Positions 41,217-57,794 of a DNA stretch of 64,000 nt are shown piece by piece. The notes under the pieces are model-generated. The model worked only from the letters and a program-made list of their open reading frames with translations, made no database searches and had not been told where the DNA came from. Position 1 is the stretch's first letter. Every line of letters begins with the position of its first letter. Both the position numbers and the translations under genes were made by a program. Source of the stretch: Bacteriovoracaceae bacterium (GTDB taxonomy: Bacteria; Bdellovibrionota; Bacteriovoracia; Bacteriovoracales; Bacteriovoracaceae); the NCBI GenBank assembly GCA_048270185.1, contig JBLWTJ010000001.1:288001-352000 (forward strand), read 5' to 3'.

Positions 41217-44200
41217 GTGTTAAAATCCAGATTTTTACTAGCTATTCTTTTTACACTGTCGATTTTATCGACAGGTATTCACGCAAAAGATCTTCATAGC
41301 GGACCAATCTATGGGCCAGGTGATGAAGAGATCAGTAGCGAAGAAGCTCTAGTATCTGTTAAATGGCCACTTAAGTTCCTTCGCCATGATATCAATGAAG
41401 TTCTCATGGCCGATGGTGGATCATTTAAAGAAATCTCTAAGATTGACCTCGATCCAATTAACCGCACTCTCCATTTTGATGCCACTATTATCATGCCAGA
41501 TTCGATGCTTCTTTCGATGGAAGATAAGGCCGGAGATAAATTATTAAATGAACACAAACTCTCACTTGTTCTAGGATTTCCTCAATATGTAAGAGGACAG
41601 TACATAGAATTAACGATTAGAAAATTTGTTCTTGATGATGTGGATTACTCAGGTGGGATGCATATTATTACAAATGTAGCGGCAGCTCTTTTAAAGAATA
41701 GAAGTCTTATTAACTACTTTATGAATGATGATAAGGCCCCAACAGATTATTCTGATGAAGACCTATCTAAAATGATTAAAGAGTTATTTGATAACGAAGA
41801 TATCGTGATGAAAGATAATCGCATTAGACTGCGTTTTAACTTCACAAAGCTTACAGGGCTGACTCGTTATAAAGAAGTTGAAGATCTTCAAATTTGGTAT
41901 ATTGGCCCAAAGAAGGCCAAAGGGACAAAGCAGGGAGCAACATTTGTTATCGAAGCAGGGATTAAGAACCCTTCAATCAGTTATATTAAGTCAGTAAAAG
42001 ATGAAGGTAAGCTTGCTTCGCAAGAACTGCAAGAACTTAGAGCACAAGAATATATCACTTACGGATATAATAAAGACGTAGACGCTCGTTTAGAGAAAAT
42101 GCAATCAAGACTTCTTGAGGAAAGTGGTATCTTCACTTGGAATGAGAGAGAGCAATTCATTATTAAATATATGCTTCAGACGGCCGTATCAAAGGCCCGT
42201 AAAGCTCTTGATAAGAAAGACCTATACTTTATCGATGAGCCTCAAAAGGCCAATATTGAGTTCTTTAAAGCAGCTGAAGAATTTTTAAGAGTATCAGTTG
42301 CTGACTTAAAGCTGCGTCACGTGGTTGATATGCAAAATCGAAATGGTGGTGTTGTCGGTAGCAATATGCCATTTGTTAATGCTCGTATTTCACAAAATGC
42401 CATTTCTCAATTCACAAATTACTTTCGCGACTTCAAATTAATCGATAAAGAACCACTCTTTAAAGAACTAAATTTTGTTCTGGCCCCACATCTACCAGGT
42501 GTTGTTCTTAAAGGACGCGTAAATCTTGAAATGAACTCACTATTTGAGATGGGACTAGAAGGTGAAGGAATTGATTTCAATAACCCAGATATCAGACTAG
42601 ATAGCAAGACTTATGGAGATTCTGTACCATTTGAAATCTCACTCTATACTTATATGCGAGATAATGGAGTACTAGAGCTTGATATTAAAGATGCCGTTCT
42701 TGGTGAAGGACAGGCAAGAGTTCACCTAACACCAAAGACAGATAAGGGCTACTTCCTTGAAGAGTTCACGAAGCTTACAATTGCCAATATCCTAAAGACT
42801 TATCTTATTAGTGATCCTCTTGCGACAAAAGAAGACGAAACTCAAGATGATCCAGCACAGATTAAGCAAGAGTTAATTGAAAAGCTACAAAAGCTAAAAG
42901 AGAGCTTTAAAATGGCCGACAAGGTTGAGACTGTAGATGAAATTATCGCAGTTAAGAAGCTTGATCTTTCAAGCCCATTCATTTCGATCCCAGAAGAGAT
43001 GACGGAAGATAATCTTGTTGAATTCTTTAATAATATTCTTGGTATGGATAGAGAAACGGGAAGACTTCAAGTTAATCTTGATCCAACAATCTTTAGCGAA
43101 AAGATCCTCTATGCTAAGAATGACGTTCAAGTATGGAATATTGAGCCACTATTCGACAAGCTAATGGATAAGACTTATATCGATCTAGCAGTTGGAAATG
43201 GTGTAAGAACGAAGAAATACCTTGATAAGATTTATAACAGAATTGAAAAGCAAGATAGTCTAAATTTTGCTGGAACAAGCGGGAATATCGATAATGAAGG
43301 GCCTACAGATTACTCAATCAATATTGAACTTCGCCAATTTGAGTCAATGGTTAACTCAATCCTATCGGCTTCTATTGCTCCTCAAGTAAATGCAGCGAAA
43401 GAGCAGTTTAAGAGTTTAGAAGAAGGAAGCGTTAATATCCTTGAAGACCTTGTTCTTAAATCACAAAGTGATAATGAGCTATATCTTAAGATTTCACTAA
43501 ATCAAATGACAAAGAAGAAGCGCTGGTTTGGTGCCCGTATGTGGAACGGAATGTTTAACCGTGAAGACAAGAACTATATTATTGAAAATAACAGATCATC
43601 AATCATGGCAAAAATTAAACTACATGCAGTTGATCTAAAAGATTATAAGAAAGACCTTCTTGAGAAGAATCGAAATGAGATTTTCCTAGGTAACACTCTC
43701 CTTAAGATTGAACTTGAGTCAATCGGACGTACACTTAAGAATCCAGGAATCTTTGGTTCAGTTCTTAACTTCCTAATTGGGGACGTAAACCTTAAAAATG
43801 GAATCGTTGGTGCAAACCTTAAGAAGCTTGTCTTAAAGATTGCAGGACCTATGCTTAACCCAACAGATAGTGAAAATGGAAATGTAACACTTGCTGGTTT
43901 TGCCCTTAATAACTACCTAAAGGTATTTACAACTAAGAAAGATATCCTACTACAACTTAACCCAAGACTTGCAGGACCTGTATGGGATCTACTTCTAGTA
44001 AAAGATCAAAATTTTAAAGGAAGAAAAATTGGTGTGGGGATTAACCACCAAGAAAAGAAGATCAACTTTGACTTTAAGATGGTCTTTAACCCATCAACAG
44101 TTGATAAGCACGAGCTATACCTAATTATGGAAGAAGCTAAGAATATTTCTCTCGCAGTTAAAAAAGGTGAAATTAGCTCTACGGCAGACCTTATTAAGGT

Positions 44201-44621
44201 ATACGACAGACTTTACTACAATAGTGATATCACAAAGCTATCTCTTGTTCACAGACTTAAGAAAGTAATCAATAGCTACGATGCACTAGCACTATTAAAA
44301 GAGGACGATGCTAATCGAGACAATTATTCAACAACTGGTGCAGAGCTTATGCAAATTGCATCTGCTGCCAAGGTTATCAGCGATGCCCTTAGGGAAGTAA
44401 GCGAGCTTTCTCATGAGCAGGCCATTGCAAGCTATGCTTCAAACGCCATGAGAATTCACGATGATCTCGAAGAGAATTATATTGGGCCATTTAAGACTCT
44501 CTATCTTAAGAGATACCAGGCCAATAATAAGAAGATCATTGATGGCGACATCACTGACTGGACTCTCTACATCCTTCCAGACGCACTTTTTGCACAGAAG
44601 GCCTACGAGTTCTTAAACTAG
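41217..44621 (+). CDS. Large secreted hypothetical protein (1134 aa) with three degenerate internal repeats
   Basis: Long ORF with GAGG RBS and signal peptide. No recognisable catalytic motif and no Cys. Confidence 0.85.
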   Translation: MLKSRFLLAILFTLSILSTGIHAKDLHSGPIYGPGDEEISSEEALVSVKWPLKFLRHDINEVLMADGGSFKEISKIDLDPINRTLHFDATIIMPDSMLLSMEDKAGDKLLNEHKLSLVLGFPQYVRGQYIELTIRKFVLDDVDYSGGMHIITNVAAALLKNRSLINYFMNDDKAPTDYSDEDLSKMIKELFDNEDIVMKDNRIRLRFNFTKLTGLTRYKEVEDLQIWYIGPKKAKGTKQGATFVIEAGIKNPSISYIKSVKDEGKLASQELQELRAQEYITYGYNKDVDARLEKMQSRLLEESGIFTWNEREQFIIKYMLQTAVSKARKALDKKDLYFIDEPQKANIEFFKAAEEFLRVSVADLKLRHVVDMQNRNGGVVGSNMPFVNARISQNAISQFTNYFRDFKLIDKEPLFKELNFVLAPHLPGVVLKGRVNLEMNSLFEMGLEGEGIDFNNPDIRLDSKTYGDSVPFEISLYTYMRDNGVLELDIKDAVLGEGQARVHLTPKTDKGYFLEEFTKLTIANILKTYLISDPLATKEDETQDDPAQIKQELIEKLQKLKESFKMADKVETVDEIIAVKKLDLSSPFISIPEEMTEDNLVEFFNNILGMDRETGRLQVNLDPTIFSEKILYAKNDVQVWNIEPLFDKLMDKTYIDLAVGNGVRTKKYLDKIYNRIEKQDSLNFAGTSGNIDNEGPTDYSINIELRQFESMVNSILSASIAPQVNAAKEQFKSLEEGSVNILEDLVLKSQSDNELYLKISLNQMTKKKRWFGARMWNGMFNREDKNYIIENNRSSIMAKIKLHAVDLKDYKKDLLEKNRNEIFLGNTLLKIELESIGRTLKNPGIFGSVLNFLIGDVNLKNGIVGANLKKLVLKIAGPMLNPTDSENGNVTLAGFALNNYLKVFTTKKDILLQLNPRLAGPVWDLLLVKDQNFKGRKIGVGINHQEKKINFDFKMVFNPSTVDKHELYLIMEEAKNISLAVKKGEISSTADLIKVYDRLYYNSDITKLSLVHRLKKVINSYDALALLKEDDANRDNYSTTGAELMQIASAAKVISDALREVSELSHEQAIASYASNAMRIHDDLEENYIGPFKTLYLKRYQANNKKIIDGDITDWTLYILPDALFAQKAYEFLN

Positions 44622-44634
44622 AAAATCCTTGGGC

Positions 44635-45426
44635 CTACTTCATTGTCGAAGGGCCAAGAATATAATTTAATCCTAAGAATAAACTTGAACGATAGCCTCT
44701 TTTTGTTAAGGGGCTATCTTCCACCGCACTCGAATACTTCGTATAAGAATAGAAAGCATTAAGGGCATATTTATCAGCAACAGGGTAGTTAAAGATTAAT
44801 CGTCCACCATACTTATGAGTCGCATTTGGTGTAAACTCTGGGCGATCGGCGCGCGCTTCTTCTGGAGAGACACCAAAGTAATAACGAGACCAATTCTTTG
44901 TATGCTGAGCATAGAAAAGACCTGGCACAATACTAAGCTTTTTGTTCTTCCAAATATTAAATTGAAATGCCTTAGAAACCCCAAAAGAATATTTGATACC
45001 TTCTGAATGACCACTAATGTCTCGCTCAACTGAAAGGTTTGAAATGAAGTACTTACCAGGAATCATGAGAGTTAGGCCCAGATCAAGTGAGCGCTTGCGT
45101 CTAGTTAGGCCTTGATTATATTCACCATCATCGGGATCAACACTATTAAAGTCAGGCTTTAATGTAAGGCGTGTTAAAGGAAGTAGACGAAAACTTGCGG
45201 CCACACCACGAAATGAAAATCTCTTATAATTATAATTAATTGAAGGAACAACTGGGATATCGAAAGTATCGCCTTCTTTGTAGAGAGATGTTGAAAAACT
45301 TGATCCAAATCCAATCTGATTGGTTGGCGTGGGCCTTTTCGCTCTTTGTTTTTCTAAATTTTCTAATTGCTCAGTTCTGCCATTAGCAAAAACAAAGGGC
45401 CCATTTAACAGGGCCCCTATAAGCAT
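44635..45426 (-). CDS. MipA/OmpV family outer-membrane protein
   Basis: YK...VVP, RDISGHSEG, YFGVSPEEA, SSAVEDSPL and terminal LGLNY beta-strand. Start placed at the TAATG overlap with the upstream gene. Confidence 0.85.
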   Translation of the reverse strand: MLIGALLNGPFVFANGRTEQLENLEKQRAKRPTPTNQIGFGSSFSTSLYKEGDTFDIPVVPSINYNYKRFSFRGVAASFRLLPLTRLTLKPDFNSVDPDDGEYNQGLTRRKRSLDLGLTLMIPGKYFISNLSVERDISGHSEGIKYSFGVSKAFQFNIWKNKKLSIVPGLFYAQHTKNWSRYYFGVSPEEARADRPEFTPNATHKYGGRLIFNYPVADKYALNAFYSYTKYSSAVEDSPLTKRGYRSSLFLGLNYILGPSTMK

Positions 45427-46550
45427 TATTTTGAAAAGTACTTTTTGATTACTTGGCAAACATATTCGCATTCTTCTTCCGTGATATAAGCGTAACAAGG
45501 TAGGTTTAAAACGGCCTTACTAATGTAGTCCGCATTTCCATTATCAATTTTTCCAACTGAATATGCTGGAGCAGCTTCTTGCATACTCATTGCACCTGGA
45601 TAAATTGTTCCAAAACCAATATTTGCTTCTTTAAGAGCTTCCCCAAGTCCTTCTCTAAGCTCAGGATCAATTAGAGCAACTGAACAGTAACCATTCTCTT
45701 CAACATGTGAAGGAACTGACTGAAGCTTCAGCGGAAGTCCTTGTAGGTTTTCTTTATAGTAATTTACGGCCGCACGACGTGAATCAAGGCGTGCATCAAT
45801 ATGGTCTAGTGACATATTTAGAAATAGTGACTCGTATGCACCAATTCTTGAGTTCCAACCAATGAGGCCATGAGAATAGTGGCTTGTACGTCCATGATTA
45901 ATAAGCGTACGACAAGTATTAATTAGATTTTCATCAGTTGAGAAGATCGCACCAGCGTCTCCTGAAGCACCTAGAACCTTTGCAGGGTAGAAGCTAGTCG
46001 TTGAAATCTTCGCACTTCCAAGAATCGACTTTCCGTTAATTCTTGTTCCAAAGCACTGGGCCCCGTCTTCAATTAACATAACGCCAGCATCTTCTGCGAT
46101 CTTTCTAATTTCCATTGTATCTGGACATGCCCAACCATATAGGTGAACAAGGATGGCCGCTTTTGGCTTAAATTTCTCAATAGCTTCCTTAAAAGTTTCT
46201 TTATCCCAGTGAAGTGTTTCACGGTTTACATCAATTGTTGCAGGATTTGCACCAACGTTAACAACTGCTTCAAATGTTGCCCAAAAAGTCATATCTGGAA
46301 CAAGAACAGTATCGTTCTTCTCAACACCACTTGCACGTAGTGCAATTTGGATGGCATCAGTACCGTTGGCACAGCCAACAACGTGCTTTGCTTCGGCCTT
46401 GGCCTGTAGCTTTTCTTCGAGCATATTGACCTGAGGTCCGCCGATAAATTGTGTGTTATCAAATAATGTTTCGACACCTTTTAAAAATTCATCTCTGAAT
46501 CCATCTTCGAAACGATTTAGGGTAATAAATGGTACGCCGTTTACAGACAT
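45426..46550 (-). CDS. DegT/DnrJ/EryC1/StrS family PLP-dependent sugar aminotransferase
   Basis: ANGTDAI, VHLYG, IEDGAQ, SFYPAKVLG and G.NSR motifs. Confidence 0.93.
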   Translation of the reverse strand: MSVNGVPFITLNRFEDGFRDEFLKGVETLFDNTQFIGGPQVNMLEEKLQAKAEAKHVVGCANGTDAIQIALRASGVEKNDTVLVPDMTFWATFEAVVNVGANPATIDVNRETLHWDKETFKEAIEKFKPKAAILVHLYGWACPDTMEIRKIAEDAGVMLIEDGAQCFGTRINGKSILGSAKISTTSFYPAKVLGASGDAGAIFSTDENLINTCRTLINHGRTSHYSHGLIGWNSRIGAYESLFLNMSLDHIDARLDSRRAAVNYYKENLQGLPLKLQSVPSHVEENGYCSVALIDPELREGLGEALKEANIGFGTIYPGAMSMQEAAPAYSVGKIDNGNADYISKAVLNLPCYAYITEEECEYVCQVIKKYFSK

Positions 46551-46744
46551 AATTCCTCGCTTGAGTAAGTGATTTTAGACCATTATATGGGAAATGAGAT
46601 GACTTAGAAATGGAAATTTTACCTACAAATAGGCGAGTAGTTTACTCAATAAATTTCAGGCTACACTATATATAGTTTTGACACCCCAGTTTATTTTTCA
46701 ATAGCGTTCATTCCTGAATAAATTTCTGTTATTTTGGACGCATT

Positions 46745-47710
46745 ATGATGAAAAATAGCCTAAAAACACTCGCTTCAATACTTCTAATTTCTCAATCATT
46801 TGCTTCACAGGCAATCTCAATGGATGCTACAAGCTTTCGTGAGACCATTGAAGGAGTCATTTCACTCTATGATAGTGAATTACCAGCTAATCGCAATATT
46901 GATATTTCATGGGAATCTGAGACTCTAAACGCTTCCGTTGGGCTTGGAAAGAATGGTGTGACAAATTTTAGTTTCCACGGTGGTTTTGCGAGAGAAAATA
47001 ATCTCAATCAAGATGCCTATGCCGTGGTTGTTTGCCATGAAGTCGGCCATATTGTTGGAGGTTATCCGAAGGTGATGCCAACTCAGAAGTACACAAGTGA
47101 GGCCCAGTCAGATTACTTTGCTGCCAATGACTGCTTAAAGAAATTCTTTGCTAGTAAGCCAATCAATTTAGCTCAAATAGATCTTTCCAATATTGATGAA
47201 AAGAAGATCGCCGATTGCCGAGAAGATCAATTATGTCTTAGAGGTCTTGCGGCCATTCGTGATGTATCTGTGATTTATCCGGGCTCAAGTATTAATGCAA
47301 AAGAAAATAAGGTTGCAGAGTTTACTAACTTCAACTCATACCCATCAAATCAATGTCGTGTCGATACACTAGTGGCAGGCCTAATGAGGCATCCAAGGCC
47401 TACTTGTTGGTTTAAGGGTTATCAGAAAGATCGTTATGAGTATGAGCCTGAGTACGAATATGAAGAAGCGCAGATCGTTGCTGAGATCACTACGATTACA
47501 CCGACATTCTATGGTTGCCACCTTACGACAAAATACCCTGACTACTGGCGTACAGGCTACTTTTCGTCATTGACTGAAAGTGATTTAATGACAATTGGGG
47601 CCACGATGGTAGGGGATTGTTCAAAGTATAAAGTAGGCGGGACTCTAAGTGGTGTTCTGACACTCTTTAAAAAGGCATTGTATTTAAATATTGAAGCGAG
47701 AGATATGTAG
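46745..47710 (+). CDS. Secreted putative zinc metallopeptidase (HEXXH)
   Basis: Signal peptide, LNA, VVCHEVGH and SEAQSDY (third ligand Glu, M48-like arrangement). Confidence 0.65.
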   Translation: MMKNSLKTLASILLISQSFASQAISMDATSFRETIEGVISLYDSELPANRNIDISWESETLNASVGLGKNGVTNFSFHGGFARENNLNQDAYAVVVCHEVGHIVGGYPKVMPTQKYTSEAQSDYFAANDCLKKFFASKPINLAQIDLSNIDEKKIADCREDQLCLRGLAAIRDVSVIYPGSSINAKENKVAEFTNFNSYPSNQCRVDTLVAGLMRHPRPTCWFKGYQKDRYEYEPEYEYEEAQIVAEITTITPTFYGCHLTTKYPDYWRTGYFSSLTESDLMTIGATMVGDCSKYKVGGTLSGVLTLFKKALYLNIEARDM

Positions 47711-47803
47711 TCATACCCGATTTTTTTACTTTTTTTTAAGTTTTATTTGCGCACCTTGCCCTCAATAATAATGAAATAATTCATTTAAAAACTTGGGGGC
47801 CAT

Positions 47804-48319
47804 ATGAAATATTTCATTTGTATTTTATTACTTTTTTCTGCGCACGCATCACGTTCAAAATTTGGAACATCATCAAAAATAAGCTTTCGCTGTCAAGTTG
47901 ATATCTTCAATAAGCTAGTTGATCCAACAACATATAAGGCCTATGCAGGTGACTTAGTTAATTCAGTCATGCACGAGCAATATAATAATGTCACAGACCG
48001 TGATCTTAAAAAGCTTGTGGAATTAGATAATGGTAAGAGCTTATTTTCAAATGCATTAATTGGTGGTGCTGGCTATCTTAGATGGTCAGTCATTGAAACA
48101 AATGATGATGGCATCGTCGTTGATCTCGAAAATATCAAGTCACCAATCACGGCCCGTACCATTTACAGTAACCGTGCTCATGATCACGCAAGAAATATGA
48201 AATCAATCGGAGAGTCAGATTCATATCTGTATCGAATTGAATGTTCTAAAGTCGATACAGACGGTAAGGATGTGAAAAAACCGACAATGAATAAAGGTGT
48301 CGCAACATATCCAAACTAG
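47804..48319 (+). CDS. Secreted hypothetical protein
   Basis: GGGGG RBS, signal peptide and two mature Cys. Confidence 0.7.
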   Translation: MKYFICILLLFSAHASRSKFGTSSKISFRCQVDIFNKLVDPTTYKAYAGDLVNSVMHEQYNNVTDRDLKKLVELDNGKSLFSNALIGGAGYLRWSVIETNDDGIVVDLENIKSPITARTIYSNRAHDHARNMKSIGESDSYLYRIECSKVDTDGKDVKKPTMNKGVATYPN

Positions 48320-48336
48320 TGTAAAATAGACCTTAT

Positions 48337-49665
48337 ATGGTCGATGATTTAAATGAGAATAATGTTTATGACTGCATCGTTATTGGTGCAGGGATTGCAG
48401 GCTTAACAGCAGCCTACGAGCTACATAAAGCAGGTCTAAGAGTACTTATCCTTGAGTCCAAGGACTACGTTGGTGGCCGTATCCAAACCATAAGCACAGA
48501 TCAAAAGCATGTTGATACAGGAGCGCAATTCTTTAGCTCTGAGTACCATACAATCCTATCTCTTATTAAAGATTTAAATTTGGAAAATTCGCTAGGGGAG
48601 ACATCCCCAAAAGCGGCCAGCTTAAAAGATAGGAAGCTTCGAATACTTAATAAGAATAATCCTCTGTCCCTTTGGCTAAGTGGTCTTTTTGGTTTCATGG
48701 ACTTTATGAAATTAGGATTATCAATTTTTAAATTACAATCAAAATTAAAGAAAATTCGTCTTGAACGAATAAGTGATTGGCATGAATTTGATAATGAAGA
48801 TGCTGCAAGTTGGTCATTAAAAAACCTTAATAAAAATATCTTGGATTATCTTATCGAGCCTTTTATTTCAGGGTTTACTTACACATCTCCTGAGAAATCT
48901 TCGGCCATGTTAGCGGCGAGAACCCTTGGGCACCTGAGTGCTAATACGGATCTTTTGGCCTTAGAAAATGGCCTCTATATGATAATTGATGCCTTAGCAA
49001 AGAAGCTTGAAATCATTAAAAGCTGTGAAGTTCTTGAGATATCTGAAGGCAAAATATTAACAAATAAAGGGGAGTTTCACGCAGGGAAAATCGTGTGTAC
49101 AACCCCTAGTAAAACCGCCAAAAAATTGGCCTATATGCCCTATCAAAATTTAGAAATTTTTGACCTCAATTATTCGGCCACCATGCATTTATCCTACCTA
49201 ATTGATAAGGATTTGATTCCAAATAAAGATGGGATTTATGGCATGATGATAAGTCATCTGGAGAGTTCGTTAATTAATGTCGTATCTTTTGAAAGTTTTA
49301 AGCATCCAGGACTTGTCACAGATCCTTCAAAAGAATTGATCAATATTATGCTTACAAATTCAGGTGCTATGAAATTATGGGATTTATCTGATGATGAGAT
49401 CCATGATGAAATAATTCGAGAGCTCAAAATCGTTTTTAAGCTTCCTGAAATAAAAGTCCATGCAAAGACCTTAGTAAAATGGGATAAGGCCATACCGTTA
49501 TTTCATCAAGGACATGTTAAAGCGATATGCAAGTATCGTGATGAATTAAGTGCAGATGATACGTTATTCTTTGCAGGAGATTATCTGGGAACGCCGTGTT
49601 CGGAAGGTGCTGCCGAGTCGGCCAAATTCATTGCCGATGTCATCACATCTAAAAGATCATCATAA
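48337..49665 (+). CDS. FAD-dependent oxidoreductase (flavin amine oxidase / HemY-like)
   Basis: IGAGIAGL, ES...VGGR, DTGAQF and FFAGDY...EGAAESA motifs. Confidence 0.85.
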   Translation: MVDDLNENNVYDCIVIGAGIAGLTAAYELHKAGLRVLILESKDYVGGRIQTISTDQKHVDTGAQFFSSEYHTILSLIKDLNLENSLGETSPKAASLKDRKLRILNKNNPLSLWLSGLFGFMDFMKLGLSIFKLQSKLKKIRLERISDWHEFDNEDAASWSLKNLNKNILDYLIEPFISGFTYTSPEKSSAMLAARTLGHLSANTDLLALENGLYMIIDALAKKLEIIKSCEVLEISEGKILTNKGEFHAGKIVCTTPSKTAKKLAYMPYQNLEIFDLNYSATMHLSYLIDKDLIPNKDGIYGMMISHLESSLINVVSFESFKHPGLVTDPSKELINIMLTNSGAMKLWDLSDDEIHDEIIRELKIVFKLPEIKVHAKTLVKWDKAIPLFHQGHVKAICKYRDELSADDTLFFAGDYLGTPCSEGAAESAKFIADVITSKRSS

Positions 49666-49739
49666 GGGTTAATATTGCCTTATATGTCACATGGGATATT
49701 TAGGCTAAAATAAGAAGATATTGATTTCATATACGCCTT

Positions 49740-49767
49740 ACCCCATATAACGAATATTATATGGGGT
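49740..49767. other. Perfect 11-6-11 palindrome (dif-like site or hairpin)
   Basis: ACCCCATATAA-CGAATA-TTATATGGGGT in an intergenic region. Confidence 0.6.
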
Positions 49768-49829
49768 GATTTGTTTTCCCCCTCTATCACATATCCCAGA
49801 TCATTTAATTCAAATTATCGACTAATTGC

Positions 49830-50321
49830 TTAGCCAATAATTCGAATCACTGGGTCCATAAATTTCGAATTCTTTGAAATTCGTCCAGGTACTGCAAAGA
49901 AGAAAATCATCATAAGATAATTCACTATTGGTAGTATCATTAAAACGACTGCAATAAACACATAACGAAATTTCAAGCTTCCAAAAATATCTCTTAGTCT
50001 CTTTAAATGAAAAAGAATAATTCGATAGACATAAAGAATTGAAATCATCAAAAGCCATACTGAACATAAGAGATTCCCCATCGGAGATGGCCTTATCCCT
50101 GCACGAAGGGTTTCATTAAATAATAGATCGACATTTAAGCTTAAAGTTCCAAAGTCAAACAGGCCATATGCTATTGAGTAAACCTTGAAAGTATCTGTTC
50201 CATAGATAAAAAATAGCCCAGATAAACTTAGAATAAAGAGCAATACGTTTGTAAGTACAAAACCTTGAAGTAGAAAATTAGAGCGACTTGATACACCCTT
50301 CCAGCTGCTGAATAATTTCAT
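49830..50321 (-). CDS. DUF805-like membrane protein
   Basis: FSSWKG.SSRSNF at the N-terminus, KRLRDI, several TM helices and PG near the C-terminus. Confidence 0.65.
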   Translation of the reverse strand: MKLFSSWKGVSSRSNFLLQGFVLTNVLLFILSLSGLFFIYGTDTFKVYSIAYGLFDFGTLSLNVDLLFNETLRAGIRPSPMGNLLCSVWLLMISILYVYRIILFHLKRLRDIFGSLKFRYVFIAVVLMILPIVNYLMMIFFFAVPGRISKNSKFMDPVIRIIG

Positions 50322-50479
50322 CGAATACTCTCCTAAATATTTATCTTCAAGAACTATACTATGAAATCACAAGAGCATTCATTCATTTTATATACACACC
50401 CTATAGATTATACAACATATTATATTTGCACAGGGTTTCCTGATATATTCAAAAAAACTTATATTATGAGGAGCCAGTT

Positions 50480-50917
50480 ATGATCAAAATATTATTTGCA
50501 ATAATCGCTTTAAACTTCTCTGTAATGGCCTCAGAAGAGTTAGTCCTTGAAGGTCAGTCTGGATATTTGCCTAAAGGTGAAGTTGAATTTGAACTAATAG
50601 ATGAATCATGTGGATTAGTCCTTGTAGATGGTAAGCACTTTGGAGCCTTCTTAGGTGATCAGCAATACTATTTCACAGATGTAAAGACAATAACTCCACA
50701 ACAAAATCCAAACTTAAAGAGCCCTGTATATATAGGTTCATTTGAAATTGAAGCCAACGATGATTCAAGGCCAGTAAAAACTGTAAAAATCATGGTTAGA
50801 ACTTACGGCAATACACTTGATCCAATCAGAAATATTAATGCTTTTCGAATAGAGCTTTTCGATAAACATAAGAAGTCTTTGGCGGCAGCTCTTTGCGTTG
50901 ATGTAAGCAAGAAGTAA
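50480..50917 (+). CDS. Secreted hypothetical protein
   Basis: GAGGAG RBS, signal peptide and two Cys. Confidence 0.75.
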   Translation: MIKILFAIIALNFSVMASEELVLEGQSGYLPKGEVEFELIDESCGLVLVDGKHFGAFLGDQQYYFTDVKTITPQQNPNLKSPVYIGSFEIEANDDSRPVKTVKIMVRTYGNTLDPIRNINAFRIELFDKHKKSLAAALCVDVSKK

Positions 50918-50922
50918 AAAGC

Positions 50923-51483
50923 CTAGGCAATAAGTCCAATTTTTCGCTCAACACTCTTGTCGTGTAGAAAGAACTTAACTTGCTGCTTATAGAAATCACA
51001 AATAGTTTTTTCCATTTCACTATAGACCTGCTTTTCTAAGTAGGTCTCATACTCTCCTGCTTTAATCTGCATGTCTGTCTTATCTTGGATATATTTAAAG
51101 TAAATCGTGTCTTCAACTTTCTTATAACTAATATCAAATTTAATATTTTCAGCAGGCTGAAGTGTCTTATTAGCGTCGATATGAAGTCGTAAGAGAATTG
51201 AAAAAACCCAGTAACCATTATCAGCAAGTTTTACGGCACCGTGAGGAGTGTACGAAATATCCTCGTCAATTGGTGTATAGAGCTCTTCCTCGCCTTCTAA
51301 TAGCTCAGGATCAACATGGATCGTTTGCACAAGCTTAATAAGATCGTATTCATTTTCTTTTAGGCCTAAGTACTTCTTAAAACCATGGAATAAGACACTT
51401 GCAAATGTCGTGGCATCTTCATGGGCCTTAAAGAAGAGTTCTCGTGATTTCTTATATTCATTACATAGATTGAGGTATGACAT
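50923..51483 (-). CDS. Hypothetical cytoplasmic protein
   Basis: ORF of about 186 aa ending in RKIGL. Start uncertain (51483 or 51510). Confidence 0.65.
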   Translation of the reverse strand: MSYLNLCNEYKKSRELFFKAHEDATTFASVLFHGFKKYLGLKENEYDLIKLVQTIHVDPELLEGEEELYTPIDEDISYTPHGAVKLADNGYWVFSILLRLHIDANKTLQPAENIKFDISYKKVEDTIYFKYIQDKTDMQIKAGEYETYLEKQVYSEMEKTICDFYKQQVKFFLHDKSVERKIGLIA

Positions 51484-51571
51484 AAGGAATAGTTCGGAAT
51501 ACTTACACAAATCAAAAGTTATGATTTCTAAAATAAATCTTTAAGTAGCACAGGTGACGAATAAGAAATTG

Positions 51572-52006
51572 CTATGCAAAAGTGATTGCTAAAACAAAAA
51601 TCAAGATCAAACCAATGACAATCGCTTCAAAGACGTACGTCTTGTTTGTTTCCGGTGCTTTAAACTCACCTGTTAAGCGAAAGTGTGAATCATTAATGTT
51701 ATTTATCACGTATTGAATTTTTCCAAGAGGTGTAAGTCCTGTGAAGTCATAGAGAACTTCTCGATTCTCACAAATGGCCGTGTAAGGAACTCCACGAACA
51801 CCAAAGTTGTCCGCAATCTCAGGACTCTCCATGGTATTGACTTCATAAACATTTATATCGGGATTATTTTCACTTAAGGCCTCAAAGACAGGGGCCATTG
51901 TTTTGCATGGGCCACAAGTATCAGAGTAAAACTTGATAACGAATACACCTTTTTCACTAGATGCAATCGATTCAAAGTTTTCGTTATTCATTTTTTTAAT
52001 ATTCAT
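51572..52006 (-). CDS. Thioredoxin family protein with C-terminal TM anchor
   Basis: KFYSDTCGPCK, cis-Pro GVRGVP and hydrophobic C-terminal tail. Confidence 0.85.
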   Translation of the reverse strand: MNIKKMNNENFESIASSEKGVFVIKFYSDTCGPCKTMAPVFEALSENNPDINVYEVNTMESPEIADNFGVRGVPYTAICENREVLYDFTGLTPLGKIQYVINNINDSHFRLTGEFKAPETNKTYVFEAIVIGLILIFVLAITFA

Positions 52007-53019
52007 TCGACTTCCTTATCTTCCTTATCTCCCTGATCTTCACCAAGATAATTCACAATATTTGCAATCTCATTAATCTTCTCTTTACGGCGCTTGTTAT
52101 AGAGAAAGGTCATACGAGGGTCTGAGTGCCTGGCATAAGTCGCTTGATCCTCAAGGCTTGCGCCATTCTCATAGAGGTTTCCAATCCCTGTAGCACGAGA
52201 TGAGTGCGGTGAGATTCTGTGTTTGATTCCTGCAAGCTTAGCATATTTTTGAAAGATCTGGTCAATTGTGTTTCGGTTTAAAGGCCCAAGCTCATGTGAC
52301 TTTCGACCTGATGTAAAGAGAGGCTCACTCTGCGCAAACTCACGCCTTAAACTAAAGACTTCAATGTAGAATTTAATATCGTTAAAAGTCTCATCAGAGA
52401 GATAGACCTTTTGCTTCTTTCCACCCTTACTTTTTACATGCAGGTAATTGCCAATATTATCGCTGGCGAAGTCCCCTACTTTAAGGCCAATAATTTCAGA
52501 CTTTCTCAGTAAGGTATGGAACATGACTTTTAGAATCGTTAAGTGAAGCACGCCACTTAGATTATAGCTGCCATCCTTATTATGGAGAGTGACACTCTCA
52601 AACATATCCACAACCTCAGAGGCCGAAAGATCATTGGTCTTAACTTCCATAACGACCTTAGGCCTAAAGACACCTGTGGCCGGATTCTTATAGCAAAGCT
52701 CCTTTTCCACTAGGAAATCAAAGAAGCGCTTAATAGAAGAAAGATGCCTTGCTACTGTCGCATCCTTAAGCTCTTCATTCTTTAAAAGATGGTCACGGTA
52801 GGCCGAGATATGGCGTTGGGAAACGTCTGATAGGTTTGAGAAGGTCTCAAATCCCTTTAAAAACGTTAGAAACTTCTTTAGGTCTCTCTTATAAGCATCT
52901 CTGGTATGGATGGAATTGGACTTAGTTAAGAAGTCCTCAAAGATATCATTAATGCGCGCACTTGAACGCCTAGGGCCTACGGCACGAGATCCATTTCTGG
53001 CGTAGCTTACTTCAACCAT
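52003..53019 (-). CDS. XerC/XerD-like tyrosine recombinase
   Basis: N-terminal SAM-like domain (HTRDAYKRDL...ATVARHLSSIKRFFDFL). Catalytic R (LRKSE), K (KGGK), HxxR (HSSR), H (RHSD) and Y (FLY) are all present. Confidence 0.93.
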   Translation of the reverse strand: MVEVSYARNGSRAVGPRRSSARINDIFEDFLTKSNSIHTRDAYKRDLKKFLTFLKGFETFSNLSDVSQRHISAYRDHLLKNEELKDATVARHLSSIKRFFDFLVEKELCYKNPATGVFRPKVVMEVKTNDLSASEVVDMFESVTLHNKDGSYNLSGVLHLTILKVMFHTLLRKSEIIGLKVGDFASDNIGNYLHVKSKGGKKQKVYLSDETFNDIKFYIEVFSLRREFAQSEPLFTSGRKSHELGPLNRNTIDQIFQKYAKLAGIKHRISPHSSRATGIGNLYENGASLEDQATYARHSDPRMTFLYNKRRKEKINEIANIVNYLGEDQGDKEDKEVE

Positions 53020-53630
53020 TACTGGAAAGCCTTTGTGTCACTTGTGTGCTTTAAGCTCTTAGACCATGAATCAAGGGCATCTAATAAGTTCTCCTTAGGC
53101 GAGATAACCCAAGTATTAATCTGTGTGATTTCGGACTTTGTGAATGCCTCTAATAAGTCCTCTTCATCAAACATGAATTCAAAGTGGAGGCGCTTAAAGA
53201 TATGGCGCCCTTTTAAGACACGGGCCTGATAGTGATCAGCTTGCCCAATACGCCCATGTTTCTTATTTGATATAAGTAATTCCGTATCGGCGATAATTTG
53301 ATCAAAGAGATTTCTAAGCTTTGTAAGAAGCCTCTTTTTGCGAATTAACTCCTTATCATAGTTTTCAACTAGGGCCTTGAGGATGGTTCCAAGCCCTGGC
53401 TTCTTACGTGTTATCTTTGAGGCCACAAGATCATAGGCCCATGATAGATACTTATTCTTAATCATAAGGGTCTTATGGATAACATTATCATCTATGTGTT
53501 TACTTGCGTATTCACTCACAGAGCTTCCCTGAGAGAGAATAATCATATCGTATTCGTCGTACTTAGGTGCTTCAATTAATGGTGTGGATGCTTGAGATGT
53601 CCTTCCAGACAGTGATCTAAGCTGTGTCAT
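53019..53630 (-). CDS. Hypothetical protein translationally coupled to the recombinase
   Basis: AGGAG RBS before MTQLRS and a TAATG overlap with the recombinase start. Confidence 0.75.
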   Translation of the reverse strand: MTQLRSLSGRTSQASTPLIEAPKYDEYDMIILSQGSSVSEYASKHIDDNVIHKTLMIKNKYLSWAYDLVASKITRKKPGLGTILKALVENYDKELIRKKRLLTKLRNLFDQIIADTELLISNKKHGRIGQADHYQARVLKGRHIFKRLHFEFMFDEEDLLEAFTKSEITQINTWVISPKENLLDALDSWSKSLKHTSDTKAFQ

Positions 53631-53711
53631 AACCGCTCCTTGGTTATATATTATTTTATCAAACACATGGGTCATTTATCAATTTTTCCCCACGTAAGAT
53701 TTTAAAAATTA

Positions 53712-53745
53712 ATATCTAGGCATAACTCCAATTATGCCTAGATAT
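53712..53745. other. Palindromic dif-like recombinase site / operator
   Basis: ATATCTAGGCATAA-CTCCAA-TTATGCCTAGATAT has 14-bp arms and a 6-bp spacer. The CATAA-N6-TTATG core matches bacterial dif. Confidence 0.65.
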
Positions 53746-53795
53746 ATTATATGTTAGTTATAAAATGAAAACATGTCATGTTTTTAAGAGTGAAA

Positions 53796-54311
53796 TTAAG
53801 CGGACATATCTAAGTCATTTACTTCAATTTCATTTAGTGATTGTTTCTCATAGGCATCAAAAGTCATTTCAATACTTTTTTCACTTAATCGATCAAGTCT
53901 TGGATGAAGAAAGGCTGTCAGGCCAATACTTGCTAAGTATGAAACCACAAAGAGTTCGACAGAAATTCCATTAGCGATATAGCCCATGAAGCCTAAGATA
54001 ATCACGGCCTGAGCAAAGGCCCATGATGAAACCCAGCCAGTAAAGACTTCATTGCGATAGACTTCATAAGAGCGGCCATATTTAAGAGTTTTAGTAACGA
54101 TTCTTTCGTCATTGAATAAAATAAAAAAGTAAACAAGTGAAAGAGACGCTGGAGCAAGACTTAGGATTTGAAAATTTGCTGTGATATCGGGATTATTTCC
54201 ACCTTCGATAATTCCACCGACAACCATGTAGAAGAGAAATGTTTGGGTAATTAGCATCGAGGCATATACAAGCTTAGTCATAAATTTCACGTGTCCAATA
54301 TTTCCATTCAT
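53796..54311 (-). CDS. Hypothetical membrane protein (about 4 TM)
   Basis: GGGGGAG RBS and four hydrophobic segments. Confidence 0.75.
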   Translation of the reverse strand: MNGNIGHVKFMTKLVYASMLITQTFLFYMVVGGIIEGGNNPDITANFQILSLAPASLSLVYFFILFNDERIVTKTLKYGRSYEVYRNEVFTGWVSSWAFAQAVIILGFMGYIANGISVELFVVSYLASIGLTAFLHPRLDRLSEKSIEMTFDAYEKQSLNEIEVNDLDMSA

Positions 54312-54477
54312 TCGTCTCTCCCCCGCCTTTATTGTTTCGTGTTCATCAACAATTATTAGGGAGAGTCTAGGTTATCTCCTAGTAAAATGATTATTCATTA
54401 ATTCCAGTGACTTATCTCTGCAATCTTTAGTTGATCAAAGATAGTGGATATTACCTTTTAAAAACAAATACTTAGCT

Positions 54478-54504
54478 TAAGAAAACCTTAACAATTTCCG
54501 ATAA
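54478..54504 (+). promoter_or_regulatory. Sigma28/FliA-like promoter
   Basis: TAAG-N15-TCCGATAA about 125 bp upstream of the BspA-like gene. Confidence 0.5.
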
Positions 54505-54629
54505 TTAAGCTGAGGTCAATAAAATATAATGCCTCATATAATTGCTACTTTATAAGTTAGCTCTCCCTTTAAATTATTGATATAGGGCCAAGTTAACTTT
54601 CTTTCGATTACCGGGGATATGATTTGAGA

Positions 54630-56723
54630 ATGACGAGGATATTACTTTTAATTTCAACATTATTTCTAATTACTGCTTGCGGAAAGAAGGCTTCAACTAA
54701 TGCAACGATCAGCATCGTTTCGGGCCTTTCAAGTGTAACGACTCTCTTTGCCGGTGGCGCTCATCTCTTTGCCACAAATTCTGATACTGGTGTTAAGCGA
54801 TCGATTGAGTTAACTGATACGACAATGGATATCGAATTTGATAACGGGACTTGGGATTTATCTTTCTATGCGTGGGATGATCCGAATATGGGAAGTATGC
54901 CATATTGTAATAAGATGACAGGTGTTGTTCTTGATGGAGCGGCAATTGAGCTAAGTGTTTCGATGCTTCAAGATGCTTCTTGTCAGCTAACAAGTAATAT
55001 CAATCTTCACTCTCCAGTTATGGGTGCAACAATTCCAATTGTTATGCCGGCCTCATCGATTAAGGTACATCTTCTAAATTACGATTCAGCTCCAAAGCAT
55101 AGTTTTGGAATGAAGCCGGGCCTAAATTTTTCAAGTCACAATATCTGCGTTGGTGACACTGGACTTACAGTAAACGATCCTCTAGATGTTGGAACTTATC
55201 TTCAAAATATTCCAGAAGAAAATGCTCCTTTCTACATTGAGGTCTTTGACGGTGTAGCCGATTGTTCTGGCTCAACAACTCGTGAATACTTCTCTCCAAC
55301 AGGTATATATACCGTAGCCGGCGACCTTACGGCAGATCTTTACCAGATTCCGCTTACTGACTTTATCTTTACTGTAAAAGTTCTTGTTGGGGGAAATTCA
55401 TTTGTCGCTCCAGTTAAGTCTGGTGGGACATATAACTTCACGATTGATTATGGTGATGGCTCAGCAAGTGAGACTATCGTCTCAGATGCTCCAGCGGGAC
55501 ATACTTACTCTGCGACAGGACAGCATCTCGTTCGAATCTCTGGGGAAATGAGTGGAGTTGAAGTTGCAGATAATGCAAATATGTATGTTGAGAATGTTAT
55601 GAACCTTGGGGACACCAAAACTCAGGATTATTCTGGTGCATTTCATGGACTATCCAATTCGGGAGTAAATCTTAATAGTATAGCAGGCGGATTCACTTCC
55701 TCAGCAACAGATATGTCAATATTTCTCCGCTTTCTTGGCCTTCTGACAAGGGTCGATTTGTCTAGTTTTGATACTTCAAATGTGACTTCAATGAGCGGCA
55801 TGTTTGCATCATCAAACGCTATCACACACTTAAACCTTAAAAACTTTAACACTAGTAAAGTTACAGACATGACTTCGATGTTCAATTATTGTCAATCACT
55901 AGAAGAAATAAACGTAAGCTCATTTGATACTACAAATGTAACAAATATGACCAATATGTTTAAGGATACGGTTAGCCTGACAAGCCTGGATCTTAGTTCC
56001 TTTAAAACACCAAATTTAACGTCAATGCATTACATGTTTAGAAATACAACTAGTTTAACTGATTTAGACATTAGTAACTTTGAAACTTCCAGTGTTACAA
56101 GTATGCTTGGTGCATTTGAGCAAGCAACAAGTCTAACAAGCCTAGACTTAAGTCACTTCGATACTTCAAGTCTTACAAATATGAGTGGTATGTTTTCCGG
56201 AGCGACTAATTTAACGAATCTGAATATAAGCAGCTTTGATACATCTAATGTGACAATTATGACTAGTTTGTTTGCTGGTACATCTTCATTAACAAGCCTT
56301 GATCTTAGTCATTTCAATACTTCAAATGTTACAACAATGGCGTCTATGTTCAAAGATATGACTAATTTAACAAGCTTGAATGTTAGTAGCTTTGATACTT
56401 CATTAGTAACAAATATGGCTTATATGTTTTCAGGGGCACAAAGCTTAACATTTCTAAATACACCTTTTGATACAACTAATGTAACTAATATGGCCTATAT
56501 GTTTAGCGATATGACTTCCTTAAATGCAATCGATTTTTCTTCATTTGATTACTCAAGCGTTACGGATATGTCATACTTTCTAAGTGGATCTCCTGTTACT
56601 ACAATCCAAGATTCCGGAACAAATTATAATGCTCCAGTTCTTATGAGTTCAACTTCGCTAATAGACAGTGGAACATGTACATATGATTATACATATCCAA
56701 CGCTGACATTTTCCTGTCCTTAG
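54630..56723 (+). CDS. BspA/DUF285-type surface lipoprotein with PKD-like domain and 26-residue repeats
   Basis: Lipobox LITAC, IDYGDG...HTY (PKD-like), and repeats LT.LDLSSFDTSNVT.M..MF. Confidence 0.88.
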   Translation: MTRILLLISTLFLITACGKKASTNATISIVSGLSSVTTLFAGGAHLFATNSDTGVKRSIELTDTTMDIEFDNGTWDLSFYAWDDPNMGSMPYCNKMTGVVLDGAAIELSVSMLQDASCQLTSNINLHSPVMGATIPIVMPASSIKVHLLNYDSAPKHSFGMKPGLNFSSHNICVGDTGLTVNDPLDVGTYLQNIPEENAPFYIEVFDGVADCSGSTTREYFSPTGIYTVAGDLTADLYQIPLTDFIFTVKVLVGGNSFVAPVKSGGTYNFTIDYGDGSASETIVSDAPAGHTYSATGQHLVRISGEMSGVEVADNANMYVENVMNLGDTKTQDYSGAFHGLSNSGVNLNSIAGGFTSSATDMSIFLRFLGLLTRVDLSSFDTSNVTSMSGMFASSNAITHLNLKNFNTSKVTDMTSMFNYCQSLEEINVSSFDTTNVTNMTNMFKDTVSLTSLDLSSFKTPNLTSMHYMFRNTTSLTDLDISNFETSSVTSMLGAFEQATSLTSLDLSHFDTSSLTNMSGMFSGATNLTNLNISSFDTSNVTIMTSLFAGTSSLTSLDLSHFNTSNVTTMASMFKDMTNLTSLNVSSFDTSLVTNMAYMFSGAQSLTFLNTPFDTTNVTNMAYMFSDMTSLNAIDFSSFDYSSVTDMSYFLSGSPVTTIQDSGTNYNAPVLMSSTSLIDSGTCTYDYTYPTLTFSCP
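55740..56580 (+). repeat. About 11 tandem 26-aa (78-bp) surface-protein repeats
   Basis: Periodic F(D/N)TS.VT.M..MF motif in translation. Confidence 0.88.
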
Positions 56724-56732
56724 GCGTGCCTA

Positions 56733-57281
56733 TCAAACATCCTGATCACTCGGAATCGACAAAACCTGCGACTCAAAGGGATCACTGATATTGATAAAGT
56801 AGTAGCACTTATTATTATCAAGCATAAATCCATGAGGTGATTTTTCAGACATCTGAATACGCCATCCTGATGCTAATATCGGCACATCAACTTTAAAGAG
56901 ATTTTCTTCTAGGTCATAGTAGAAATTCACAAGTGTCACCTTGAGGTAGCGTTGATCGCGGGAGAGTTCACTAACATGGGCAATACTGAAAGAATAGATC
57001 GTTCCCATGGGCTGCACCCCCTTTAAAAGGGCCGAATGCTCTGGGATAGCATGGTAGTAGAAGGCCCGCTCAAAATCCTTAATACACTTAAAAGATGTAG
57101 AATTGCGCTGTCCTATATTATCAAGATTCTCCTTGGCCTTAATGCCGCGCTCGTGCCACTGGTCAGATAAAGCTGCTGACTTTGAAGATGGATTACGTGC
57201 TTCTTTGGACTTGTCATTACTTGAACAAGAGAACGCACTGAAAATAAAAATCGTAAATAGAATGAAGAGGGCCTTAAGCAT
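56733..57281 (-). CDS. Hypothetical lipoprotein
   Basis: Lipobox-like AFSC followed by ARNPSS. Confidence 0.7.
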   Translation of the reverse strand: MLKALFILFTIFIFSAFSCSSNDKSKEARNPSSKSAALSDQWHERGIKAKENLDNIGQRNSTSFKCIKDFERAFYYHAIPEHSALLKGVQPMGTIYSFSIAHVSELSRDQRYLKVTLVNFYYDLEENLFKVDVPILASGWRIQMSEKSPHGFMLDNNKCYYFINISDPFESQVLSIPSDQDV

Positions 57282-57342
57282 AGAAGACTTCTCGGTGAGA
57301 AATTCTATCTTCTGGACTGGCTTAGGCCCTTCTTAAGAAAAC

Positions 57343-57726
57343 TTAATAAACTGAGCTAAAACATGAAAGCTCAAATGAGCGAGTGTAATTATCGCTTAAG
57401 CGAGTAAGTACAAGCTCAACTGGTAAGTAACTTGTCGCCTTACCAATGAATTCAGTTGGAATATTAATTAATTCTCTAATTGGCCCTTCCTTTGTTTCAT
57501 AAGTATGAACTTCATCATTCACACCAACAAAGAAGAGATCTTTTAAAATTCTGTGCTCATCAGGAAGATGCACACCATTAGTTGCAAAGTAAGTTGAATC
57601 ATCACCATTTAAATTGATAACAAAACCGTTTGTTGAATAAGAATCTGCTTCAGAACATTGAATATACTGACGTGCGCTTACAGACACAGAAAGTAGAAGT
57701 CCTAGAACGACTAAGATATTTCTCAT
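57343..57726 (-). CDS. Small secreted hypothetical protein
   Basis: GGGGGA RBS, signal peptide, and an N-terminal and C-terminal Cys pair. Confidence 0.75.
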   Translation of the reverse strand: MRNILVVLGLLLSVSVSARQYIQCSEADSYSTNGFVINLNGDDSTYFATNGVHLPDEHRILKDLFFVGVNDEVHTYETKEGPIRELINIPTEFIGKATSYLPVELVLTRLSDNYTRSFELSCFSSVY

Positions 57727-57794
57727 ATAAATTCCCCCTATCGAATTTAAAATTAAAAAATCCTATGAGGGAGAGTTTGATATGTCAAACTAAA

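Follow-up and report, generated by a model that had tools for sequence, protein, structure and literature searches.

A single-recombinase Xer-type module with a partner gene at the replication terminus of a Bacteriovoracaceae bacterium, probably distinct from the main dif system

We analyzed a 64,000-nucleotide stretch (the window) of the genome of a Bacteriovoracaceae bacterium, taken from positions 288,001 to 352,000 of contig JBLWTJ010000001.1 in NCBI GenBank assembly GCA_048270185.1. This genome is referred to as G000 and the window as G000:C1:288001-352000, and all coordinates below are those of the window unless a contig is given. In it, a tyrosine recombinase gene and a gene for a partner protein lie directly behind a symmetric Xer-type site. 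This combination, hereafter the module, consists of the following parts.

52003..53019, minus strand: tyrosine recombinase gene, 338 amino acids, intact catalytic residues, in a clade apart from the family's Xer clade
53019..53630, minus strand: partner gene, 203 amino acids, no known family, basic, predicted to be mostly helical
53653..53682, minus strand: promoter-like site of the two-gene unit, 10 of 12 consensus matches with an extended -10 element
53684..53694, minus strand: accessory box C, CG(T/C)GGGGAAAA, G-rich, between the core site and the partner gene
53712..53745, no strand: module core site, two perfectly inverted 14-bp arms (53712-53725 and 53732-53745) around a 6-bp spacer, containing an 11-6-11 Xer-type core
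53749..53757, no strand: accessory box B, a CAT(G)-type half box adjoining a core arm
53769..53783, no strand: accessory box A, a 7-1-7 palindrome with CATG, 23 bp from the core; candidate partner-binding site

The partner open reading frame (ORF) starts 82 bp from the palindrome, after a ribosome-binding sequence, and its stop codon overlaps the start codon of the recombinase gene by one base (TAATG, 53017-53021). The symmetric palindrome, the 203-residue ORF, the TAATG overlap and the intact recombinase had all been described in an initial annotation of this DNA, and sequence and domain analyses confirmed each of them. In the recombinase, the core-binding and catalytic domains (PF02899 and PF00589) both scored over their cut-offs and there is no arm-binding domain, as in a simple Xer-like tyrosine recombinase. 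Its catalytic set, R172, K198, H272, R275, H298, and Y307, is complete and invariant in an alignment of 11 homologues; the roles of these residues are well established for tyrosine recombinases. The protein scored below the cut-offs of the equivalog models for XerD (126 vs. 329.6) and XerC (114 vs. 335, a model applied to a chosen set of proteins rather than order-wide), and also below those for XerS (64 vs. 267 bits), archaeal XerA (109 vs. 220 bits) and the integron integrase IntI (44 vs. 265 bits). Proteins 86-88% identical to it in named records belong to Halobacteriovorax. In quick trees whose rows came from the family and from metagenomes only, with no external references, the module recombinase and two metagenome proteins (about 43% identical) fell outside the host recombinase clade (SH-aLRT 96-98, on long branches).

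Homologues of the partner are scarce: five matches were found among 1.84 billion representatives, three of them at 26-28% identity. Searches of Pfam, NCBIfam and PADLOC returned no family for it, solved structures gave no match, PHROG gave one weak unnamed match (E 0.004), and the best Atlas score was an uninformative 0.77. A first structural model, built from five sequences, was poor (pLDDT 58). The second, a monomer model built from 11 sequences (pLDDT 75.6), begins with a disordered segment, followed by an extended stretch and by long helices at residues 59-72 and 80-124, and Foldseek searches with it found nothing at E 0.001. The sole outcome of a wide fold search was a set of ties with helical bundles, including Escherichia coli Tus (Z 7.6, rmsd 2.9, 86 aligned residues), which we treated as noise.

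The module core site is well set apart from its genomic background. Five perfect 14-6-14 palindromes occur on the five large contigs, and only that of the module has an ATAA-N6-TTAT core; about 0.0006 such palindromes per 64 kb would be expected by chance from base composition alone, a background that terminators raise in practice. The arms are perfect mirror images and hence lack the asymmetry of XerC/XerD-type sites. Each carrier genome has a single copy of the core, which is non-coding and located at the terminus. Accessory boxes flank it on both sides, over a total span of about 100 bp. Boxes A and C keep a fixed spacing in all seven genomes that carry the module and are single-copy in G000, while box B has CAT in all seven and a fuller ACATGT in five, and is degenerate in G000. 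An alignment of the non-coding DNA of the seven carriers indicated that the boxes have been kept although synonymous sites are saturated. The palindrome had been correctly recognized in the initial annotation, which missed both these boxes and a second palindrome 4 kb away, at 49740. The promoter-like site, which is a consensus match only, is recognizable in the five closely related carriers and not in G165 or G166; its position between the palindrome and the partner gene makes autoregulation plausible.

Comparative analyses revealed that the parts of the module travel together within a narrow taxonomic range. The recombinase clade was found in 7 of 237 family genomes, all belonging to this genus (7 of its 13 genomes), and in none of the 224 family genomes elsewhere. 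A profile of the partner matched 6 of 401 genomes of the phylum, again all in this genus, with a seventh copy (G165) read directly from the locus; the combination of palindrome, ORF, and recombinase is therefore not conserved across Bdellovibrionota. Site, partner, and recombinase occur together in all seven carriers, and the site is absent from the six genus genomes that lack the genes, which supports the earlier proposal of a self-contained single-recombinase unit with a dedicated partner. The core lies upstream of the partner gene in every carrier, with 0-1 mismatch to a 24-bp pattern. Outside the genus, matches with one or two mismatches occurred in 19 genomes, not exceeding a reversed control (26). 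The placement of the core is the same in all seven carriers, its arms show two changes that affect both sides (G015 and G165), and its spacer is almost invariant, being within one change throughout.

The carriers form two subgroups, between which recombinases are about 60% and partners about 50% identical. Among the five close carriers, dN was 0.01-0.11 against a dS of 0.37-1.5 for the recombinase, and 0.03-0.16 against 0.55 or more for the partner; judged by these substitution rates, both genes are under purifying selection. Divergence mostly tracks that of the surrounding DNA. One local exchange was detected, in G170, whose copy is 91.9% identical to that of G106 (region, 84.2%) and about 82% identical to those of G015 and G169 (region, 87%). 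G173 nests among the carriers yet shows a clean absence of the module. The module is real and conserved, and probably functional.

To place the module on the chromosome, three further features are needed.

41466..57776, no strand: terminus zone, with the heptamer GGAGAGT in both orientations (6:6) and a midpoint at about 49620; contains both dif-like sites
49740..49767, no strand: likely main dif, a perfect 11-6-11 palindrome whose outer arms are unlike those of the module site
G000:C1:383151-384104, outside the window and 46 kb from the 49740 site: likely dif recombinase, 36% identical to that of the module

Cumulative GC skew levels off between 320 and 342 kb of C1 and reaches its lowest value at C4:176,969, the site of dnaA. 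GGAGAGT is distributed 334:0 between leading and lagging strands on C1 (outside 329-346 kb), C2, and C3, where about 67 lagging-strand copies would be expected, and the 17-kb terminus zone is the only stretch of the five large contigs in which both orientations occur. Because the GC skew turns and the polarity of GGAGAGT switches here, with dnaA at the opposite turn of the skew, we conclude that the window contains the replication terminus, a location already raised in the initial annotation. G000 also encodes an FtsK with a gamma domain. GGAGAGT is denser toward the terminus and enriched in both orientations only around dif, and is in these respects similar to FtsK-orienting polar sequences (KOPS); mixed-orientation zones are common to G003, G015, G077, G106, G166, G169, and G170. 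The partner protein was considered as a reader of GGAGAGT and rejected as such, since the motif is polarized also in genomes without the two-gene unit.

The 49740 site shares the inner ATAA-N6-TTAT core with the module site, from which it differs in outer arms and spacer. It is separated by about 120 bp from the point halfway along the mixed GGAGAGT zone and by 4 kb from the module site. With up to three mismatches allowed, 36 of 121 family genomes, belonging to 19 of 69 genera, contain it, in most cases as one copy; a control matched four genomes. Within the genus it is present in 12 of 13 genomes, the missing one being 73% complete. In G003, a site of this type is positioned at 49.9% of a 3.44-Mb contig, within the mixed zone of that genome. 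The C1:383-kb recombinase is present in all 13 genus genomes. Matches to the module recombinase at E 1e-30 occur in 97 of 121 family genomes, and lie 15-52 kb from a 49740-type site in all 14 cases in which both are on the same contig. Separate xerC/xerD genes and a canonical dif had been named earlier as things to look for. In 81 genomes searched across the order, no protein matched XerD at E 1e-60; a second dif-like palindrome does exist, at 49740-49767. We infer from these distributions that the 49740 site and the C1:383-kb recombinase likely constitute the main, XerL-like single-recombinase system. Because this pair is far more widely conserved, the role of main dif, and with it that of the lineage's main dimer-resolution module once suggested for the module, fits the pair instead. 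For Bdellovibrio bacteriovorus, an asymmetric dif has been predicted (supplement row in PMC3025954; PMC2731167), and the supplements of PMC3025954 have no Bacteriovorax row. Literature searches pairing Halobacteriovorax or Bacteriovorax with XerC, KOPS or heptamer yielded no description, with most subscription papers falling outside their coverage.

The module site is 3.4-15.7 kb from dif in all seven carriers and within the mixed-orientation zone in all six genomes that could be assessed, and the module genes point to dif in every case. G000 and G166 differ in the side of dif, relative to asd, on which the module is placed, so its closeness to dif has either survived or followed a move. The spacer of dif drifts, unlike that of the module core, and dif has no boxes of the kind described above on its variable side. 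Eight of 12 genomes have a TTT(T)CCC(C) run (49774-49782 in the window) 3-5 bp past one end of dif when viewed as a 34-bp site; the reverse complement of this run is similar to module box C, with a different spacing and orientation. At G000:C1:123 kb (L116:5331-6326), flanked by transaldolase-side genes and rnc/era/der-like genes, there is a Xer-like gene without several catalytic residues, which may be an XerC/D relic that retains a role in binding.

A third type of recombinase was identified in G003 (L195, G003:C1:1686280-1687300). It is 24% identical to the module recombinase and has a near-palindrome just upstream. Of 120 family genomes, 64 encode a recombinase of this type, and 40 of 69 genera are represented among them; in eight of 11 assessed loci (L195 and L196-L206, leaving out L198) an upstream near-palindrome was found, and there is no partner gene. 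The near-palindrome presumably resembles the arms of loxP, which is a 13-8-13 site. Where the third recombinase shares a contig with dif, the two are 9-45 kb apart (18 of 18 cases); where it shares one with the host recombinase, the separation is 4-55 kb (25 of 25). These distances were drawn from 54 of the 64 positions; fragmented assemblies favor short values, but the megabase contigs are consistent with them. Searches for the third recombinase in all 13 genomes of this genus were negative, two of those searches having no internal positive control, and three genus genomes that are 99% complete have neither the module nor the third recombinase. Since a recombinase with its own site near the terminus is common in the family, the module may be a non-orthologous occupant of a second terminus slot.

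Additional recombinase genes with their own upstream 11-6-11 palindrome, perfect or near-perfect, were observed at L114, L115, L167, L183, L184, and L013 (in G096, G118, G167, G017, G007, and G032), where there is no partner gene. In G169, an 8.6-kb insertion (L112-L113, G169:C1:674405-683044) lies between dif and a hybrid copy of dif whose spacer is identical; the element carries a replication-protein-like helix-turn-helix (HTH) gene and is a candidate exploiter of a single-recombinase dif. Integrase-bearing elements of similar gene layout stand directly beside dif at L125 (G173), L129 (G167), and L131 (G171). Near the terminus there are also arrays in which short Rhs C-terminal ORFs and small genes alternate (L043; L103 in G166; L126 in G173), of which the G015 array (L043, G015:C6:568.8-578.9 kb) stops about 1 kb from the module site. 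Elsewhere in G000, two adjacent large genes with a tyrosine-recombinase fold occupy a small contig (G000:C13:187-3059), likely a mobile element, and a gene for a DUF285 repeat surface protein at 54624-56723 of the window is strain-variable, as seen in a joint that skips 54372-56739 in sequencing run X1.

Among known systems, XerS/difSL of streptococci and lactococci and XerH/difH are similar in having one recombinase gene beside its own terminus site, as described in the sections of PMC5357621 devoted to them. XerS/difSL has an 11-bp center, whereas the module has a 6-bp center, fully symmetric arms, a partner gene, and accessory boxes; and unlike both XerS and XerH, the module stands beside another single-recombinase pair. 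XerL/dif of Legionellales is reported as a lineage-specific single recombinase with a palindromic terminus site that homology searches had missed and that an integrating element exploits (PMC9765430). Compared by description rather than by sequence, XerL best matches the 49740 site and the C1:383-kb recombinase. According to that account, XerL is the sole system of its order and order-wide (PMC9765430), whereas only part of one genus has the module, which is optional and accompanied by a partner. The layout of the module, with the partner as a candidate helper and again compared by description, matches the recombinase, helper, core and accessory repeats of TnpS/TnpT/rst in Tn4651-type transposons (PMC7157771). 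As described there, however, the tnpS and tnpT genes diverge around the site within a Tn3-family transposon (PMC7157771), while those of the module are in tandem and overlap. Moreover, no transposase or terminal repeats were seen near the module and no neighboring gene is shared by the seven carriers; the module resides at a chromosomal terminus, and its partner, set against TnpT by description, has no Pfam match.

Helper-assisted Xer recombination offers two more comparisons. At cer and psi, which act with ArgR, ArcA and PepA, a Xer-type core is combined with accessory sequences in the flank, as in the module (PMC5357621). These plasmid-type sites are described as relying on XerCD and helpers of the host and as extending over about 180 bp (PMC5357621), whereas the module encodes its enzyme and a candidate helper beside the site. 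Like XafT of TLC-phi (PMC6744903), the module partner is a small protein whose gene lies near dif, and it could allow Xer-type recombination to proceed independently of FtsK. XafT is reported to have HTH and DUF3653 domains, to act on host XerD and to need no flanking DNA (PMC6744903); the module partner has no XafT-like domain match and is accompanied by a recombinase and boxes of its own. Finally, within ter of E. coli, Cre-loxP can replace XerCD-dif, according to the experiments recounted in PMC2680272 and PMC2731167. A foreign single recombinase with a symmetric site can thus resolve dimers, in this case as an engineered system with no helper (PMC2680272, PMC2731167). The module is not the main dif system but a variant of single-recombinase Xer-type systems with an uncharacterized putative helper.

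The role we favor, with a confidence that we would put at about even, is that of a captured resolvase kept as a second, auxiliary, helper-assisted system for resolution or unlinking at the terminus. By analogy with the enzyme family, four recombinase monomers would bind two 11-6-11 cores and exchange strands across the 6-bp spacer. The anatomy of the locus, together with the helpers of cer/psi and rst, suggests that the partner would bind the CATG boxes or the recombinase and license or orient the reaction; it may also repress the promoter of the unit. Phylogeny points to a module that would have been captured from the resolution system of a mobile replicon. Recombination between sister copies of the site would then unlink chromosomes at the terminus. 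Such a module would be kept because a recombinase site inside the zone of dif activity can resolve dimers, as does Cre-loxP at the dif position of E. coli. With one module site per chromosome, the sister copy is the only resident substrate, and it is this substrate, combined with the ability of a foreign symmetric-site recombinase to resolve dimers at the terminus, that leads us to favor auxiliary resolution.

Several observations weigh against this role. Six of the 13 genus genomes, three of them 99% complete, have no module, and since these six also tested negative for the family's other second recombinase, a second system is dispensable. G173 has a dif with four arm changes and no module, which means that rescue of a damaged dif does not depend on the module. 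Insertions favor the terminus in these genomes, with elements at dif in G169, G173, G167, and G171, and the position of the module may therefore need no function to explain it. By eye, partner residues 50-95 resemble a ribbon-helix-helix, a fold that would suit CATG boxes, but a six-sequence profile, itself a weak test, gave it a probability of 0.1%, and no Pfam, profile or fold match supported it. Furthermore, accessory boxes are described as usually confining recombination to one supercoiled molecule (PMC6744903, PMC5357621), a restriction that fits a plasmid better than a chromosome dimer and keeps alive a role in mobility. The module could still serve a plasmid, satellite or Xer-exploiting element, by recombining with incoming or excising DNA or by spreading itself, with dif as a mere landing place, a reading that we regard as possible and clearly weaker than auxiliary resolution. 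It would account for the patchy presence of the module, its occurrence on both sides of dif, the local exchange in G170, a recombinase clade outside that of the host Xer proteins, and a spacer that is nearly invariant while that of dif drifts. A helper with accessory boxes is, moreover, a plasmid or transposon design, and a longest contig of 4,672 bp is shared by two distant proteins, a partner (P0024) and a recombinase (P0015), which is circumstantial. Yet the carrier flanks revealed no second cognate or hybrid att site and no conserved cargo, replication or transfer gene, which does not support the present-day integrated element proposed as one option in the initial annotation. Neither a partner match nor a close recombinase match was found in 72,556 plasmid records or viral contigs, metagenome and viral scans detected no locus of the module clade, and divergence from G000 follows the regional background. 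In four DNA sequencing runs, examined as assembled contigs only, there was no joint at either site and no piece spanning the stretch. The two palindromes were also considered as an attL/attR pair or as the flanks of an IMEX element and rejected, as their arms and spacers differ and ordinary genes are enclosed.

The other explanations are less probable, to differing degrees. It is unlikely that the site is a binding platform at which recombinase and partner organize or pause the terminus, or repress their own promoter, without crossover: the single site directly upstream of a promoter-like sequence and a basic partner without an assigned fold would suit such a role, while six catalytic residues invariant in 11 homologues, a fixed 6-bp spacer and dif-like inner arms speak for strand exchange. 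The terminus position, a gene beside its site as in xerS/difSL, and the lack of a canonical XerD in 81 genomes of the order could be taken to mean that the module is the cell's main chromosome dimer resolution system. This is very improbable given its absence from six of the 13 genomes of the genus and from every one of the 224 searched in the rest of the family, the presence of the 49740 site in 12 and of the C1:383-kb recombinase in 13 of those 13 genomes, the position of the 49740 site at the polarity-switch midpoint and at 49.9% of the G003 contig, and the fact that it is the 49740 site which the inserted element of G169 duplicates. We hold it to be just as improbable that the recombinase is an integron-like enzyme or a shuffler of dif modules behind the turnover of terminus genes. 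Gene order and content around dif do differ strongly between close genomes, but they are shuffled in the same way in G173, which has no module. Across 12 terminus regions searched at up to six mismatches, no repeated sites were found at gene boundaries except for one hybrid dif in G169 and three weak matches; the integron integrase score is far below its cut-off (44 vs. 265 bits, as above), and there is no attC array. Least probable of all is that the palindrome is a mere terminator of the upstream gene, a possibility the initial annotation had itself named as a refutation. A terminator scan accepts the palindrome in either orientation, and its fold has a z of -4.6. No Rfam family matched positions 49000-55000. 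The upstream gene, however, varies among carriers while the arms, 6-bp spacer and boxes persist; in G106 the stem is not followed by a T run; and the site is absent wherever the module genes are absent. The both-sided arm changes, kept spacer, variable upstream gene and unconserved T run together indicate that the site is not just a terminator.

A broader picture can be drawn more tentatively, and we think it doubtful in its full form: this predatory family would have two independent single-recombinase terminus systems, the second slot being filled by non-orthologous captured modules, and the module described here would be the first chromosomal Xer-type system with a dedicated helper of a new family and accessory boxes, allowing FtsK-independent unlinking during filamentous multi-chromosome growth. 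The symmetric 11-6-11 site and its own enzyme could also make up an orthogonal recombination tool. For the predatory lineage, our findings provide a parts list for chromosome resolution, comprising a symmetric main dif, a likely single recombinase, a polarized heptamer, and a second terminus system. If the proposed role is true, the module adds a helper of no known family that possibly controls a tyrosine recombinase, and shows how Xer systems may be replaced through the capture of recombinase-plus-site modules at the terminus.

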